NCBI GenBank assembly: GCA_963667175.2
Contig: CAXXXF010000014.1
Span: 32,001 to 96,000 of the forward strand
Length of the DNA stretch: 64,000 bases
From: Candidatus Latescibacterota bacterium
Lineage (GTDB): Bacteria; Latescibacterota; UBA2968; GCA-2709665
Direction: 5' to 3'
The position numbers and the translations under genes were made by a program. The notes beneath the pieces are model-generated. The model saw only the letters and a program-made list of their open reading frames with translations. It ran no database searches and was not told the DNA's origin. Positions 1 through 6,340 of the stretch are shown here, piece by piece. How positions within the stretch are numbered: the stretch's first letter is position 1; every line of letters starts with the position of its first letter.

Positions 1-332
1 ATGAAGTGCTCGCCGCCGCCGCCGGAATCGTGTGCCAGGCGCATTGCGGGCGCGACGAAGGCGTTAACGATCGCTTCGACCGGCGGCGGGCCGTCGGCGG
101 CGGCTTCCTCCCGATCGAGGAGGCGGCGCCGCTCCCGGTTGAGCGGTTCGAGCCGCCGGGCGAAGACGGCTTCGACCAGCGCTTCCCTGGACCCGAAGTG
201 ATAGTGGATTGACGCCAGGTTGGCCGGCGCCTCCGAGGCGATGGCCCGCAAGGACGTGGCCGCGATTCCATGTTCCGCGAACAGATGTTCGGCAGCGTCG
301 AGCAACCGGTTGTGGGTATCGGTCTGGTTCAT
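1..332 (-). CDS. TetR/AcrR family transcriptional regulator (3' end runs off the window)
   Basis: Manual translation of the minus strand from ATG at 332: MNQTDTHNRLLDAAEHLFAEHGIAATSLRAIASEAPANLASIHYHFGSREALVEAVF, a classic TetR HTH. Not in the ORF track because it has no stop in the window. Confidence 0.9.
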   Translation of the reverse strand, partial: MNQTDTHNRLLDAAEHLFAEHGIAATSLRAIASEAPANLASIHYHFGSREALVEAVFARRLEPLNRERRRLLDREEAAADGPPPVEAIVNAFVAPAMRLAHDSGGGGEHF

Positions 333-357
333 GTGATTCAGAGATTTAAAGGAAAAA

Positions 358-393
358 TTAAATCAAACGTATGATTTAAACGACCGTTTAAAT
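358..393. promoter_or_regulatory. Tandem palindromic operators upstream of the TetR gene
   Basis: TTAAATCA-N6-TGATTTAA (358-379) overlaps ATTTAAACG-AC-CGTTTAAAT (374-393). Minus-strand TTGACA at 414-419. Confidence 0.65.
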
Positions 394-543
394 TAATCCA
401 TCCACATGGCAAATGTCAAGAAGATTCGGCTGCTTTTGGAAATTCCCGGGGCTATTGAGAGTCCCTGGTTTCCACCGGGGTGACTGCCGTTGATCGACAC
501 ATCGTGGCCGGGCGGTTCCCCGGCCGAATTATTAATTTTCTAA

Positions 544-572
544 TTGACAAACGTCTAAGATTTCGATATACT
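544..572 (+). promoter_or_regulatory. Sigma-70 promoter for the blaI-like operon
   Basis: TTGACA (544-549), 17-bp spacer, TATACT (567-572). Flanked by ATTAA-N4-(T/C)TAAT boxes at 531-544 and 577-590. Confidence 0.75.
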
Positions 573-761
573 TCATATTAAGGAATTAATCGCACGCCGC
601 CGCTACGCGGTCCATCCCGCGCGAACCGCGGAATCGTTCCGGTCGCGGGCCCCAGGTACTCAGACTGCAGCGGACCGACCATCGTCTCCCGATGACGAGA
701 CCGGCGAGCGGCGCGAAAAGGACTCGTCGATATCGGATGATTATTTATAGGAGCAGACTGT

Positions 762-1139
762 ATGGCAAGGCCGAAGTCACCCACGCTTACCGAAGCCGAA
801 CTCAGACTGATGGACGTGCTGTGGAAAAAGGAGACGGCCACCGTCAGCGACGTTGTCGCGGCGCTGCCCGGCACGGCGCCGCTCGCTTACAGCACGGTGC
901 TGACAACGCTCAGGATTCTCGAACGGAAGGGTTACGTGTCCCACGAAAAGGAGGGCAGGGCCTACGTCTACCAGCCCGTAGTCGGACGCGAGGAAGCCAG
1001 AAGAAGCGTGGTCCGGTACATGATGAGCCGGTTCTTCAACAATTCGCCCGAAGCGCTGATGCTGAACATCGTCGAGAACGAAGCGGTCGACGGGGACGTT
1101 CTCGATCGTTTGAAACGAATGGTGGACGACAACGGTTAG
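762..1139 (+). CDS. BlaI/MecI/CopY family transcriptional repressor
   Basis: LTEAELRLMDVLW...LAYSTVLTTLRILERKGYV...GRAYVYQP winged-helix pattern. AGGAG RBS. Directly upstream of an M56 peptidase. Confidence 0.93.
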   Translation: MARPKSPTLTEAELRLMDVLWKKETATVSDVVAALPGTAPLAYSTVLTTLRILERKGYVSHEKEGRAYVYQPVVGREEARRSVVRYMMSRFFNNSPEALMLNIVENEAVDGDVLDRLKRMVDDNG

Positions 1140-1148
1140 GGATGGCCT

Positions 1149-3296
1149 ATGTTGGCGGCCTATGAGATTTTCGACGCCGTTTCCCGTGTGACGGTGTCCT
1201 CCATGCTTGATGGTCTCTGGAAGGGCATGGTCATCACTCTTGCAGTCGCGTGCCTGCTGAACCTGGCCCGGTGGCTGAACGCCCGGACCCGGTACGTAAT
1301 CTGGGCGGCCACGCTGATCGTGGTATTCGGGCTGACCTGGTCCGGGGTCTGGAGCCCGCCCGATCGTGCGGCGACCGCACGGATGTGGTTTGACGCTGTG
1401 GAAACGGACGTTCACGGGCAACCCGGTTCACGGAGGCCGATCGATGCGGACGCCTCTGATTCGTCGCCGGGCGCTGATCAGCCGGTACACACGGATCGCT
1501 CGGGACCGGCGTTTGCGCCGGAACCTCCCGGGCGGTGGCCTCCGGTCGTCTTCGCGGTCTGGATGCTGGTCGCGTTGGCACTCTCGGCCAGACTCTTTCG
1601 GGGTTTTTGTCTCCTCCGGCGCCTTAAACGGAGCGCGGAGCCCCTTCCCGCCCGATATCAGGGCAAGTTACGCCGTCTGATCCGCTCCTGCGAGACCCGG
1701 CGCTGGGTGCGCCTGTGCAGTTCGGCACACGTGGAGTCTCCCGCGGCGACGGGTCTCTTCAGACCCGTCATTCTGATCCCGGAGACCATGCTGGACGAGC
1801 TGACGGATGAGGATTTCGATCAGGTGGTCCTGCACGAACTGGCGCACCTGCACCGGCTGGACGACTGGACCAGACTCTTCCAGGCGGTGGCGGGGTGCGT
1901 TCTGTTCTTCCATCCGGCCGTATGGTGGATTGCTCGACAGATGGACCTGGATCGGGAGGCCGCCTGTGACGACGTGGTGGTGGGCATTACGGGAGGAGCC
2001 AGAAGTTATGCGGCCTGCCTGACGCGCCTGACAGAGATGATGGCGTCGCCGGTCGGTTCGACGATGGGCTTCGGCGCCGGAGGAGACCGGAAGCAGGTCG
2101 TACGTCGGGTCAAACGGTTGTTGAACGCCAGACGAGGCGCCGAACATCGCCTCTCCCGCTCAGGTCTGTTGCTGGCATCGGGCTTGATTCTGGCGGTGCT
2201 GGTGCAGTGCGGACGCGTGGGCCCCGTGGTCGAGGTTCCGGGCCGTTCCGAAGCGTTCGTGAAGCTGGCGGCGTTCAAGGACCGGCTGCTTGCGCATTTG
2301 CGGCTGGATAGACTGCCTCCCGGTTCCGGACGTGTCGATCTGGTCACGGTAATTGCGGATTCCATGGACGCCCGGACGTTTCGGAAACCTTTCCTGGAAG
2401 TTATGGAGAGGGAAATCCTCACGCCAAGAAAGGAGCGTCTCTACCGTGTCTTGTTCGCTCATCCCGAAGAATTCAAAAGGCTGCGACGCAGGAATATCGT
2501 GATCGCCGCGCCGCTGGACGGTGTCCACGAAGCGGCCGGGCTGGTGCGCTCCCTCGTGCCTCAGGCACACAGAGATGCCATGCGGAACGGAGCAGCGCCT
2601 TTCGTCATCCGGCGGGACGTCTGGGCTGACGACCAGGTTGTGGTTCTGGTTACGGGTGAAGACCGCGATGCGCTGAGAGCCAATATGATGACGGAGGCCG
2701 ATCGGATTTACAGCGCAATCGACGGAAAACGCGATGAACGGGTCGCCGGGAACCTTTTCCGTTTTGGCGAGAGAGAGGCGCTCGCATCGGAGCTGGCGGG
2801 CCGGTTCGGATGGCGTATGCGAATACCCTTCGGGTTCAATCTGATCGATACCCATGCCGATAGCGGGTTTGTCGTGTTCTCCCGAACCCACGCGCGCGTG
2901 ACACAGTGGTTGTTTGTCTACCGCGAGGAAGGCGTGCCTCCGGACCGGCTGACAGAGGCGTGGTGCATCCGGAAGCGGAACGAGATTGCCGCCCGATTCT
3001 TTGAGAACGACGTCGTAGACCGGACAGGCCTGAAGGTGAGTCAGCGGGAGTTGGGGAGCCGGCTGGCGGTGTACCTGGAAGGCATTTGGCAGAACAATCG
3101 TGACTGGAAGGGCGGGCCCTTCAGAAGCTACGTTCTGGTAGACGGGGAGAAGGACAGGCTCTACTTTCTGGATCTCGGGGTTTACGGCCCGAATCGACGA
3201 AAGGAATCCTACCTTCGTCAGCTGGATGTCGTTGCGAGGACGTTCGAGACGGGGCCGTTCCACGACGACCGGCTCGCTACGGCCGCGCGTCGCTGA
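1149..3296 (+). CDS. BlaR1-type M56 metallopeptidase fused to a C-terminal DUF4837-like domain
   Basis: N-terminal TM helices, SPAATGLFRPVILIP, HELAHLHRLD zinc motif, FFHPAVW, REAACDD. C-terminal half has RNI, FGWRMRIP, EGIW..KGGPFRSY, VYGPNRRK, typical of DUF4837. Confidence 0.85.
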   Translation: MLAAYEIFDAVSRVTVSSMLDGLWKGMVITLAVACLLNLARWLNARTRYVIWAATLIVVFGLTWSGVWSPPDRAATARMWFDAVETDVHGQPGSRRPIDADASDSSPGADQPVHTDRSGPAFAPEPPGRWPPVVFAVWMLVALALSARLFRGFCLLRRLKRSAEPLPARYQGKLRRLIRSCETRRWVRLCSSAHVESPAATGLFRPVILIPETMLDELTDEDFDQVVLHELAHLHRLDDWTRLFQAVAGCVLFFHPAVWWIARQMDLDREAACDDVVVGITGGARSYAACLTRLTEMMASPVGSTMGFGAGGDRKQVVRRVKRLLNARRGAEHRLSRSGLLLASGLILAVLVQCGRVGPVVEVPGRSEAFVKLAAFKDRLLAHLRLDRLPPGSGRVDLVTVIADSMDARTFRKPFLEVMEREILTPRKERLYRVLFAHPEEFKRLRRRNIVIAAPLDGVHEAAGLVRSLVPQAHRDAMRNGAAPFVIRRDVWADDQVVVLVTGEDRDALRANMMTEADRIYSAIDGKRDERVAGNLFRFGEREALASELAGRFGWRMRIPFGFNLIDTHADSGFVVFSRTHARVTQWLFVYREEGVPPDRLTEAWCIRKRNEIAARFFENDVVDRTGLKVSQRELGSRLAVYLEGIWQNNRDWKGGPFRSYVLVDGEKDRLYFLDLGVYGPNRRKESYLRQLDVVARTFETGPFHDDRLATAARR

Positions 3297-3529
3297 CCCC
3301 CCCTGTCAACTGGGACAGATTGTCGCCGCTCTTTTTTCTTAAGTATTAAAGAATTAGTCCTACGCGCATTTAGATTCTCCCCCACCCTCTAAATTCCCCT
3401 TTTTCAAGCCCTTTCTTAATGCCGTCGGCAAGAGAGGATACCGCACGGGGCAATCACATCATCTCACGTCTTACGTCTCCCCTAGGTAGGGGGACGGGCG
3501 GTGAGGACCCACCCGAAAGGAGGCTGACG

Positions 3530-4171
3530 ATGATACGCTATAAGAATCCCGATGTAGACCTGAAGCTGGCGTACCCGAAGGTGATGACACGGAGTGTGGC
3601 AATATCCGCGTTGTCTCTACTCGCGCTCGCGGCGATGTTTCCCTCGTTCGAAATGGACGCCTCCGCGCGAAATCGACCGAACGAGGTGCTGGTTTTCGAG
3701 CACGTCCACGAGACCCGGCAGATACGACCTTCGGTTCCCGAGCGGCCCGTCGTGCCCGTGGAAGCCGAGAACGACGAGGTACCGGAGGATGTAACGATCG
3801 AACCGACCGAACTGAATCTCGACCGGGCGCCCGTGGACCTGCCCCCGCCCCTGCGCCGTGAGGCCGCGCCCGTTGAGGAGGAAGTCCTGGAATTCTGGCA
3901 TGTTGAGCGGAGACCCGTGCTGACTCGCAGCATGACGCCGGTCTACCCGGAGGTTGCGATGAGGGCGGGGCTGGAAGGAGACGTTTTCGTCGCGTTCACG
4001 GTTGGCGCCGACGGAAGCGTCACAGACGTGCGGGTGCTGCGGGGTGCGGATATCTTCAGAAGAGCGGCGGTCGAGGCGGTTTCGCAATTCCTATTCGAGC
4101 CGGCCGCGCAGAACGACCGGCCCGTCGCAGTAAAAATGACGATGCCCATCCGGTTTCGGCTGTCCGATTGA
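3530..4171 (+). CDS. tonB: Energy transducer TonB family protein
   Basis: AGGAGG RBS before ATG 3530. N-terminal TM helix, Pro/Glu-rich linker, TonB_C domain (PVYPEVAMRAGLEGDVFVAFTV...FEPA...PIRFRL). Confidence 0.85.
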   Translation: MIRYKNPDVDLKLAYPKVMTRSVAISALSLLALAAMFPSFEMDASARNRPNEVLVFEHVHETRQIRPSVPERPVVPVEAENDEVPEDVTIEPTELNLDRAPVDLPPPLRREAAPVEEEVLEFWHVERRPVLTRSMTPVYPEVAMRAGLEGDVFVAFTVGADGSVTDVRVLRGADIFRRAAVEAVSQFLFEPAAQNDRPVAVKMTMPIRFRLSD

Positions 4172-4185
4172 CCGATACGGCTGCC

Positions 4186-5373
4186 TTACAGTTCTCCAAG
4201 ATCCACCGTGAGCAGTTCCATGTGCTCTTTGTTGACAGAGTACGCGACGATCAGCCGGTCCTTCTCGACCAGCGCGCATGGATACTGATGTCCGTGCGCC
4301 TTGAGGGCGCCGGGAAACGCAATGGCGGTGGGTTCGTTGATCAGAAAGTACTGCCGCTCGAACATCACGCCGTCGGTCGAAATGGAAATCATCAACGGGA
4401 CCCGGTTCAACAGGTCGGCGATGGCATTGTTGATGAGAAAGTAACGCCCGTCCGCCAGGCTCCCGGCGCAGACGCGCGACTTCGAATCGGGAATATTCGA
4501 GAGCATGGGCGGCGTCCAGCTTCTGCCCCCATCCTCGCTGAGCGCCACCCGCAACCGCATTTCGTCCGTCTCGTTCCGGTGAAACAGGAATATCGTGCCG
4601 TCGTCCGTCTGATACCACGACGCCTCGCCGTACGGAAACCTGCCGGAATCCATTCCTCGAGAGCCGTCGTGGGGAATCTCGACAATCTCCGGCTGCTCCA
4701 GCGGACTCTTACCGGGCCACAGAAACACAATTGGAACTCCCCGCCGCGACCCGGCGCACAGCAGCCTGCCCTCCCGCGTCAGCCTGGGCGCTTCGAACCA
4801 GTAACAGTCTTCGGCGACAATCTGCTCCGTCCAGCGCTGGCCGTCCATGGAGATGCAGAGACCGACGCTACAAGTGATTCTCCTCTCGTCGCCGGCGCTC
4901 ATGCCCGGCCTGCGGGCCACCCCGCCCCCCGTCTTCGTCTGCACGAACACGATGAGACGGTCTTCGCAGCCCATGATTCCGCCGGTATTACGCCACATCC
5001 TGCCGGAGACGTCGCCCGGCGCCACGCAGGATGGCCGCGACCAGCCTGACAGATCCTCGCTGCGTACAATCAGTGTCTGCTGGCCGGGCGCCTCTTCGTC
5101 AACAGCGCCGTTCGAGAACACGTACCAGTAGGCCCCCCGCCAACTGCAGATCCCCGCCTGATGATTGTAGGTGCCGAACGCCGTCGTACCCGTTGCCACC
5201 CGCGATCTCCAGACCGGCGCCTGTTCGAACCAGGCCGGCCATTCTTCTCCGTCGGGCCGGGTGCAACCCGCTTTCCTGAACTGCGACGTGATCAGGTTGT
5301 CCCGAACTCTCTGCCTGAGGTCCGGCGTGAGCATGGAGATTCGGGTTTCCGCATAAATGTCCGGTTCGGTCAT
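4186..5373 (-). CDS. Sialidase/BNR-repeat beta-propeller protein
   Basis: Asp-box motifs SEDGGRSW, SMDGQRW, STDG. C-terminal QYP...AYSVNKE typical of BNR_2. Confidence 0.75.
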   Translation of the reverse strand: MTEPDIYAETRISMLTPDLRQRVRDNLITSQFRKAGCTRPDGEEWPAWFEQAPVWRSRVATGTTAFGTYNHQAGICSWRGAYWYVFSNGAVDEEAPGQQTLIVRSEDLSGWSRPSCVAPGDVSGRMWRNTGGIMGCEDRLIVFVQTKTGGGVARRPGMSAGDERRITCSVGLCISMDGQRWTEQIVAEDCYWFEAPRLTREGRLLCAGSRRGVPIVFLWPGKSPLEQPEIVEIPHDGSRGMDSGRFPYGEASWYQTDDGTIFLFHRNETDEMRLRVALSEDGGRSWTPPMLSNIPDSKSRVCAGSLADGRYFLINNAIADLLNRVPLMISISTDGVMFERQYFLINEPTAIAFPGALKAHGHQYPCALVEKDRLIVAYSVNKEHMELLTVDLGEL

Positions 5374-5797: not shown

Positions 5798-6340
5798 ATG
5801 CCCGGACACGGATACACGGGAAGCGGTTCACCGTTTCGTTCGGATCAGCTGCAGCTGCGTTTTCCAGGCTCGACGCGGACGCCCGACGCTCAGGCGGAGA
5901 CCGTCCGGTGTGAACACTGCGGGAAGCCGAATCGTATTCCGGTCTGGATCGCCAGGCGGAAGTTCCGTCTCCACTTCTGCGGCAAAGCCTGCCTGGACGC
6001 GTGGACGTCGGTACTTCCGGACGACGGGAAACGTATGGTCTTGAGGGGACGCCCGGAATACAGGGGCGGAAACTGGAGAGTGCAGGCTACGCGGGCGAGA
6101 AAACGAGACGGCTTCCGCTGCAGGAATTGCGGGGTTACCGAAGCATCGCTGGGCAGACAGCTGGACGTCCACCACGCGACGCCCGTACGTCTGTTCGCGT
6201 CGACGGTCGCGGCCAACCGCCTGGACAATCTGGTCTCGGTCTGCGCGTCGTGCCACAAACGCCTCGAGGCAAAGCTGAGAGACGAACTTCCTCTCTTCCA
6301 CGAGGTGAGACATCCCGGTCAGCGGCGGGTGCAAGAATGA
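5798..6340 (+). CDS. HNH endonuclease with N-terminal Zn finger
   Basis: CEHCGK...FCGKAC zinc finger, then RDGFRCRNCG...LDVHH...NRLDNLVSVCASCH HNH motif. Confidence 0.85.
   Translation: MPGHGYTGSGSPFRSDQLQLRFPGSTRTPDAQAETVRCEHCGKPNRIPVWIARRKFRLHFCGKACLDAWTSVLPDDGKRMVLRGRPEYRGGNWRVQATRARKRDGFRCRNCGVTEASLGRQLDVHHATPVRLFASTVAANRLDNLVSVCASCHKRLEAKLRDELPLFHEVRHPGQRRVQE

Follow-up and report, generated by a model that had tools for sequence, protein, structure and literature searches.

A BlaI/BlaR1-type switch with a DUF4837 lipoprotein copy as its predicted sensor in Latescibacterota

What does a BlaR1-like protease sense when its penicillin-binding domain has been replaced, and which genes answer to it? 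The question is raised by a gene in a 64,000-nucleotide (nt) stretch of DNA from a Candidatus Latescibacterota bacterium (contig CAXXXF010000014.1, positions 32,001 to 96,000), hereafter the window. The gene joins an M56-family zinc protease to a DUF4837 domain and lies between a blaI repressor gene and a tonB gene. Taken as a whole, the locus is best explained as a BlaI/BlaR1-type switch in which a copy of the DUF4837 lipoprotein would sense an envelope protein partner, an explanation to which we give about even chances.

The fusion gene and its protease

The M56-DUF4837 gene occupies positions 1149..3296 of the + strand, an open reading frame of 715 amino acids (aa) without internal stop. 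In Pfam, Peptidase_M56 spans aa 29-322 (E 5e-35), and DUF4837 spans aa 393-698 and matches profile positions 2-295 of 295 (E 4e-32). The DUF4837 domain (PF16125) alone is a full-length match and scores 115 bits against a gathering cut-off of 25. The initial annotation's description of an M56 protease fused to a complete DUF4837 domain is borne out by this single frame and by the profile hidden Markov model matches to both domains. Directly upstream, across a gap of 9 nt, blaI (762..1139, +) encodes a 125-aa repressor of the BlaI/MecI/CopY family with the Penicillinase_R winged helix and dimerisation domain (PF03965, positions 1-114 of 115, E 1.7e-32; matches to BlaI/MecI in the PDB). Downstream, an accessory tonB of 213 aa (3530..4171, +) starts at ATG 3530 behind an AGGAGG at 3518-3523 and matches PF03544 (TonB_C, E 1e-21).

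A search of 168 Latescibacterota genomes at a threshold of E 1e-40 found the fusion in 32, which belong to two families of one order: all 15 genomes of genus g1, the only genome of g4, and 16 of the 21 of g6. Two of these 32 loci are split over contig ends. The conserved blaI / M56-DUF4837 / tonB unit proposed earlier stands, since the gene order is kept in 32/32 fusion loci, with tonB truncated in one (G012). The five fusion-less g6 genomes are also without an ortholog of this BlaI (best 40% identity) and without this TonB (best 52–53%). Thus blaI, the fusion, and tonB were lost together within one genus.

The chance that the gene is an assembly chimera or a recent accidental read-through fusion is practically nil. 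Frameshifts in the M56 part of two g1 copies among the 32 fusion loci could be taken to favor it, but the gene is a single open frame in other relatives from two families (34–92% identity), the two parts are joined by a conserved dedicated linker, and contigs of two studies span the junction region. One of these contigs (nt 1811-2287) comes from one run, which may be the source sample, and the other (nt 2178-2389) from the other study. No assembly joint is listed in the junction region among the contigs covering the locus. The relatives and the spanning contigs therefore dispose of the suspicion of an artefact. The best holders of the locus are sponge metagenomes. One RNA run gave short, low-depth contigs on the locus, by which transcription is not demonstrated.

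The zinc motifs H229-E-L-A-H233 and E270-A-A-C-D274 (1833..1970, +) have the 41-residue spacing of BlaR1 H201/E242. HExxH and RExACD are present in 25/25 fusions, confirming the annotated M56 zinc protease with HELAH at aa 229. By spacing and alignment, D238, Y287, and R320 correspond to BlaR1 D210, Y261, and R294. The best Foldseek matches of the full-length model (predicted local distance difference test, pLDDT, 86; predicted template modelling score, pTM, 0.64) are the BlaR1 entries 8EXQ, 8EXS, 8EXT, and 8EXP. The model and a hydrophobicity scan give four transmembrane (TM) helices, the variable domain coming behind TM4, and from BlaR1 and the lipoprotein paralog we infer that this domain is periplasmic. 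Median ratios of nonsynonymous to synonymous substitution (dN/dS) are 0.18 (g1) and 0.23 (g6) in the protease core; constraint is lowest in the extracellular loop, at 0.67 (g1) and 0.52 (g6). By analogy with the family, the protease very probably cleaves BlaI.

Self-cleavage had been placed at the basic segment RRVKRLL. This assignment is rejected because the segment, at aa 319, forms helix 9, the helix following a loop at aa 302-311 (2052..2081, +) to which the BlaR1 cleavage loop maps in the alignment and the model. This predicted autocleavage loop is a segment of pLDDT < 50, and its position 308 is F, I, or L in 21/21 fusions. In BlaR1, cryo-electron microscopy places self-cleavage at Ser283-Phe284, in the loop preceding helix 9, with Arg294 forming a catalytic salt bridge (PMC9834060; here and below, articles and preprints are cited for their accessible parts).

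TM4 (aa 337-357) and a conserved helical linker (aa 366-384) are encoded at 2157..2300 (+), as judged from the hydrophobicity scan and the model, and the linker has a dN/dS of 0.06–0.21. The QCG motif at aa 353, within TM4, had been taken for a lipobox relic of DUF4837. This does not hold. In stand-alone lipoproteins the Cys lies a few residues before LPxSxG, and Cys354 lies 35 residues earlier. In 12/12 family-1 fusions, Q, H, N, or L occupies the -1 position, failing the lipobox, and in 9/9 family-2 fusions the Cys is absent. The Cys354 region looks like TM4 ends as they ordinarily occur in M56 relatives without the fusion. A lipobox pattern is matched by 88/120 stand-alone homologs and not by the window fusion; two distant fusions (P0017 and P0018) do match. 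A lipobox as a general M56 feature was also rejected, with matches in 6/105 M56 relatives. So was an internal start giving a lipidated DUF4837: the 21 fusions have no in-frame start and ribosome site in common, and none is found in that stretch of the window gene at a start threshold passed by 10/49 in-frame starts elsewhere in the same gene.

Predicted operator boxes and their targets

Upstream of blaI lies a sigma-70-type promoter, TTGACA-17-TATACT (11/12; 544..572, +), with operator-like palindromes of the type TATTAA-N4-TTAATA on both sides. Palindrome 1 (530..545, two mismatches) abuts the -35 hexamer and palindrome 2 (576..591, one mismatch) lies just downstream of the -10 hexamer. Palindrome 3 (3344..3359, two mismatches) is located between the fusion gene and tonB. 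The two boxes at the blaI promoter are present in 32/32 fusion loci and the box before tonB in 31/32. Dinucleotide shuffles of the blaI intergenic region produced two such sites in 0/2000 cases, and shuffles for the tonB box produced one site in 8/2000. The 5.5-Mb genome holds only 6 sites with at most one mismatch. Among its seven best sites by a position weight matrix, trained on relatives only, five are the three locus boxes and a pair at C7:38312/38351. The core that combines the box with the -35 hexamer, ATTAA-N4-(T/C)TAATTGAC, occurs in 27/27 fusion-bearing genomes versus 0/14 others. In five g6 genomes, matches with one mismatch are fewer than those of a reversed-pattern control, and only exact matches are informative there; each of these genomes has two, both at this locus. 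Another g6 site (ATTAACGTTCAAATTGAC) was not counted, as it also occurs in G029, a genome without the system, nor were the single boxes at C4:310983, C3:390666, and C11:53406, which lie in AT-rich stretches or have no two-box layout.

BlaI is the only regulator common to the box-bearing loci, including sister loci of another family. A TetR gene that adjoins the window locus is absent upstream of the g6 and f4 loci that retain the box, which makes BlaI the likely box binder. The palindrome is thus a likely BlaI operator, and that BlaI binds these boxes is to be expected with considerable confidence from the behavior of its family. Its gene is highly constrained, with median dN/dS of 0.08 (g1) and 0.07 (g6). 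Small, self-regulating BlaI regulons are on record (PMC8457756). The genome also encodes a second BlaI/M56 pair (L082:6143-9419, G000:C6), whose M56 protein carries five TonB_C domains; this second BlaI has its own unique, perfect TACTAA-N4-TTAGTA box, related to the first but distinct.

The accessory tonB has a paralog in the genome's exbBD operon, to which it is 50% identical; its median dN/dS is 0.23 (g1) and 0.16 (g6). The genome has four stand-alone TonBs. From the family, the accessory tonB is a probable target of BlaI. The box pair at C7:38312/38351 has the same promoter layout and precedes an unlinked gene for a secreted protein with tetratricopeptide repeats (TPR) and a TlpA-type CxxC domain. 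At least one box lies upstream of this gene in 13 of the 14 g1 genomes with the whole gene, and two boxes do in 11; distant TPR-TlpA homologs have a box in 0/3 cases.

In 7/15 g1 genomes, a further TlpA gene has been inserted ahead of tonB, behind box 3 (L026:8291-8860 and its equivalents in L028, L029, L031, L032, L043, and L165). In 7/7 copies an in-frame TGA separates a signal-anchor stretch of ~32 aa from the thioredoxin domain, and ~17 nt after the TGA a conserved hairpin with a G-starting loop is present in the predicted fold of 5/7. Codons after the TGA are invariant in 6/9 cases versus 27/79 elsewhere, and the window's own genome has a tRNA-SeC. The inserted gene is a candidate for a selenoprotein or a read-through product.

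A canonical beta-lactam sensor governing resistance genes is a very improbable reading of this regulon. Weak matches to the BlaR1/MecR1 and BlaI/MecI models speak for it. However, all these scores fall far short of the cut-offs (83 versus 400 bits for NCBIfam BlaR1), the BlaR1/MecR1 models cover only the protease, Pfam detects no transpeptidase domain (PF00905) in the fusion, and no beta-lactamase or penicillin-binding protein lies behind any of the boxes examined, where the genes are blaI, tonB, and TlpA-type.

The DUF4837 domain as predicted input

The DUF4837 domain (aa 388-705; 2310..3263, +) is modelled with high confidence (pLDDT 96.5, pTM 0.92, from a 143-sequence alignment) as an N-terminal alpha/beta domain followed by a C-terminal PsbP/Mog1p-like domain (~aa 535-703). 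The C-terminal half matches PsbP (2XB3) with a Z of 13.8 and a root-mean-square deviation of 3.0 over 148/155 residues (Foldseek E 6e-7, prob 1.0); TplEi, BT_1490, Mog1, LpqN, and Tsi3 are further structural matches. With the Mog1p/PsbP-like proteins (PsbP, Mog1, Tsi3, TplEi, LpqN, DcrB, and BT_1490) the predicted fold is shared at Z 8–14 over 120–155 residues. Unlike them, DUF4837 has the extra N-terminal alpha/beta domain, and sequence identity is only 8–17%. Sequence searches of the PDB gave nothing below E 0.5, and an Atlas search returned DUF4837 clusters only. The closest folds include partner-binding proteins with entries as complexes: PsbP, TplEi with a peptide, Tsi3 with Tse3, and Mog1. 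The fused DUF4837 is under strong purifying selection. Median dN/dS of its PsbP-like half is 0.10 (g1) and 0.07 (g6), below that of the protease core, while the N-terminal half shows 0.22 (g1) and 0.14 (g6). Most family-invariant DUF4837 residues are retained in the fusions, but one loop has a two-residue insertion and differs at P, R, and W positions.

All 32 fusion genomes also keep a stand-alone DUF4837, which in the window's own genome is 42% identical to the fused domain. In phylogenetic trees, the fused domains and the stand-alone domains of the same order form one group against other homologs (SH-like approximate likelihood ratio test, SH-aLRT, 100). The stand-alone copies from the two families are in turn united in a group (SH-aLRT 98). 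This grouping fits a duplication of the stand-alone lipoprotein within this lineage. A single clade of all fused domains is not rejected (approximately unbiased test, p-AU 0.5). P0021, which appears to be a fragment, groups with the fused domains.

By its place in the family architecture, DUF4837 is the likely input of the switch. A weaker proposition, for which the odds look balanced, is that the switch responds to a periplasmic protein or peptide and not to a small molecule; it is favored because the most constrained half has the fold of several partner-binding proteins and the domain is copied from a host lipoprotein. In the proposed mechanism, BlaI dimers would repress the blaI-blaR operon, the spare tonB and, in g1, the redoxin genes through common boxes. 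The periplasmic DUF4837 copy would meet the protein partner normally bound by the lipoprotein, a change at DUF4837 would activate the zinc protease, and BlaI would be cleaved. The loss of BlaI would then switch on the spare TonB and the thioredoxin-like genes, a response that might serve outer-membrane uptake or envelope-protein upkeep.

The same switch may instead respond to a small molecule or glycan bound by DUF4837, such as a peptidoglycan fragment, a lipid-carrier-linked sugar, or a nutrient, with TonB induced for uptake. We regard this as possible though doubtful. The N-terminal half has a weak likeness to accessory alpha/beta domains of the glycoside hydrolase families GH84, GH115, and GH67 and of BcsB, but the Z of 7–9 is near the background level of the tool. 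TonB is an uptake protein, but the sites examined have neither a TonB-dependent receptor nor a catabolic gene beside a box. Some associations of DUF4837 with wall and lipid genes would also fit. An MltD-type SLT/LysM gene adjoins the stand-alone gene in 12 of the 62 Bacteroidota-phylum loci taken into the count (of 68). An LPG-synthase-TM gene is a neighbor in 12/25 KSB1-phylum stand-alone loci, where a methyltransferase gene is one in 10/25, and alr-sbcCD (with the alanine racemase in family f2) and trpA are neighbors in other lineages. One cluster of UppP/BacA fusions can be added. Most neighbors are, however, housekeeping genes that vary by lineage, and they suggest an envelope housekeeping role for the stand-alone protein. 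MltD as a universal partner was rejected, since it occurs in 11/30 best-scoring Bacteroidota-phylum loci but in 1/32 further ones, a lineage-limited lead; the MltD-like gene of the window's own genome is unlinked to DUF4837. At L045:1730-6963 (G000:C11), the stand-alone DUF4837 of the window's own genome has upstream of it genes for a TPR/periplasmic-binding-domain protein and a helix-hairpin-helix protein, with DUF502 on its downstream side.

Several findings weigh against a DUF4837 copy sensing an envelope protein through this switch. The fusion-bearing genomes are kin and hence non-independent samples. The cleavage-site region of BlaI retains the Asn, and the next residue is Ile or Leu in 21/21, while the P1' Phe of the Asn-Phe cleavage site of BlaI is nearly invariant (PMC9834060). 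Box 3 is missing in one fusion genome (G007), and the promoter consensus scan found no -35/-10 pair before tonB, so box 3 may act within one transcript or on a weak promoter. The thioredoxin targets are restricted to genus g1, two g6 homologs being without a box. No neighbor of stand-alone DUF4837 conserved across phyla was found in the lineages compared, and thus no partner can be named. A common fold proves no function, and PsbP-like folds also occur in proteins with other or unknown roles. Three residues conserved in the family, at the positions of P582, R586, and W592, have changed in part or entirely in the fusions, and a shift of specificity may have followed. Finally, in G082 (L289:1516-2728) a membrane-anchored DUF4837 remains after the loss of blaI and M56.

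This last genome bears on an unlikely alternative, in which DUF4837 is not the input and is instead a membrane-tethered effector or passenger, the protease sensing another cue such as the membrane state or its own extracellular loop. The deletion relic in G082 keeps the promoter box, TM4, linker, and DUF4837, and lies upstream of apparent GntR and ABC genes. The full-length model, at its pTM of 0.64, leaves the orientation of DUF4837 on the protease unfixed, and CenR, a comparable protein discussed below, functions with a largely disordered tail. On the other side, DUF4837 occupies the exact position of the BlaR1 sensor, and no part is under weaker constraint than the extracellular loop, with its dN/dS of 0.5–0.7. 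Sister systems moreover exchange this same position for another domain. In family f4 (G099, G101, and G116), loci with a BlaI 58–62% identical and with the same box encode an M56 protein with a different C-terminal domain. This domain of 200 aa belongs to no Pfam family, follows a good lipobox, and resembles stand-alone proteins of ~190–230 aa. The sister loci are L160:5097-7170, L161:4732-6918, and L162:5392-7415, and their TM4-end lipoboxes read LSAC, LATC, and LGAC.

The proposal that DUF4837 senses an envelope protein can be extended, tentatively, to an integrated decoy. The duplicate of a single-copy envelope lipoprotein of the Fibrobacteres-Chlorobi-Bacteroidetes (FCB) group would report whether its partner is free, misplaced, or attacked, and the answer would be a spare TonB and membrane redoxins, one of them possibly a selenoprotein. 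If this is true, the sister loci, with another host protein in combination with the same BlaI, box, and protease, would turn the copying of an own envelope protein as sensor into a design rule that holds for M56 switches in general. The fusion would then be a ready-made reporter for finding the binding partner of DUF4837 in Bacteroidota.

Relation to known BlaI/M56 systems, and neighboring genes

The locus shares with BlaR1/BlaI and MecR1/MecI (S. aureus and B. licheniformis; PDB 8EXP-8EXT; PMC9834060) a repressor gene upstream of a four-TM M56 gluzincin, the HExxH and ExxxD motifs, the Asp/Tyr/Arg support residues, the flexible loop ahead of helix 9, an extracytoplasmic domain at the C-terminus, and a pair of palindromes across the promoter. 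It differs in its predicted sensor, DUF4837, which replaces the penicillin-binding domain, in its diderm host, in its predicted targets (tonB and TlpA-type redoxins), and in its box, as BlaI/MecI boxes read TACA-NN-TGTA (PMC1935004). The system belongs with the non-canonical BlaIR systems and is not a canonical BlaR1. CenIR of C. difficile (bioRxiv 10.64898/2026.04.08.717257) and PvmSR of P. aeruginosa (bioRxiv 10.64898/2026.08.03.742534) also combine BlaI with an M56 protein without a transpeptidase domain and have no tie to beta-lactam resistance. CenIR controls envelope genes, according to the former preprint. The tail of CenR is short and largely disordered, whereas the tail of the fusion is a folded module of two domains and 320 aa, the copy of a host lipoprotein.

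The initial annotation had called this the best candidate for an undescribed system. The version with DUF4837 in the sensor position and its predicted operator and regulon is new, but "undescribed" is overstated, because sensors other than penicillin-binding domains make up ~94% of some 15,000 M56 proteins, in 254 architectures (bioRxiv 10.64898/2026.04.08.717257). DUF4837 is absent from the domains named in that preprint's figure legend of common M56 architectures, a legend that does not give the full list of 254. The second commonest architecture in the same preprint is M56-TonB_C. Such fusions are alike in tying the protease to TonB biology and in building the sensor from copies of host envelope proteins; unlike them, the TonB here is a separate, complete, box-bearing gene and hence likely an output, not a sensor. 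No paper on DUF4837 or PF16125 was found in the open literature, subscription journals and bioRxiv supplements lying beyond the search, and none of the papers listed for BlaI, M56, and TonB together is on this system by its title; PMC12578637 proved a false lead. New here are the predicted operator, the small predicted regulon, the fold prediction, and the grouping of the fused sensor with the stand-alone lipoprotein.

Signals and targets of BlaR-like proteins are mostly unknown. In this case operator and regulon are predicted, the fold is confident, and the sister loci offer a natural domain-swap control, so that the system can be rebuilt as a reporter. The uncultured host is a limit, and the exchange of sensors among M56 proteins is already known as a frequent event. 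With a working reporter, the function of DUF4837 would become accessible.

In the Bacteroidota and KSB1 phyla, 68/151 and 67/81 of the genomes sampled have DUF4837, in most cases in one copy. Among the matches listed for these 151 and 81 genomes none lies in a frame of more than 605 aa. A profile search of representatives at 50% identity gave 2161 hits, and the best 150 of them comprise four M56 fusions and one UppP/BacA fusion, the rest being mostly 330–400 aa long. The UppP/BacA case, P0128 (cluster of 5), is an undecaprenyl-diphosphatase fused to DUF4837. In a DUF4837 subgroup of ~390–440 aa (P0074, P0098, P0104, and the like), an N-terminal membrane anchor replaces the lipoprotein signal.

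Around the locus, the divergent TetR-family gene occupies window positions 1-410 and has a conserved repeat-like stretch of its own on the upstream side (AAACGTATG...AAACG); it adjoins several family-1 loci and no g6 loci. Between box 3 and tonB, a short repeat (3411-3500) has 12 BLAST matches in the genome, including itself, and is the source of many loose contig ends. Downstream of tonB follow a convergent BNR-repeat (sialidase-like) gene (4186-5373) and an HNH endonuclease gene (5798-6340).

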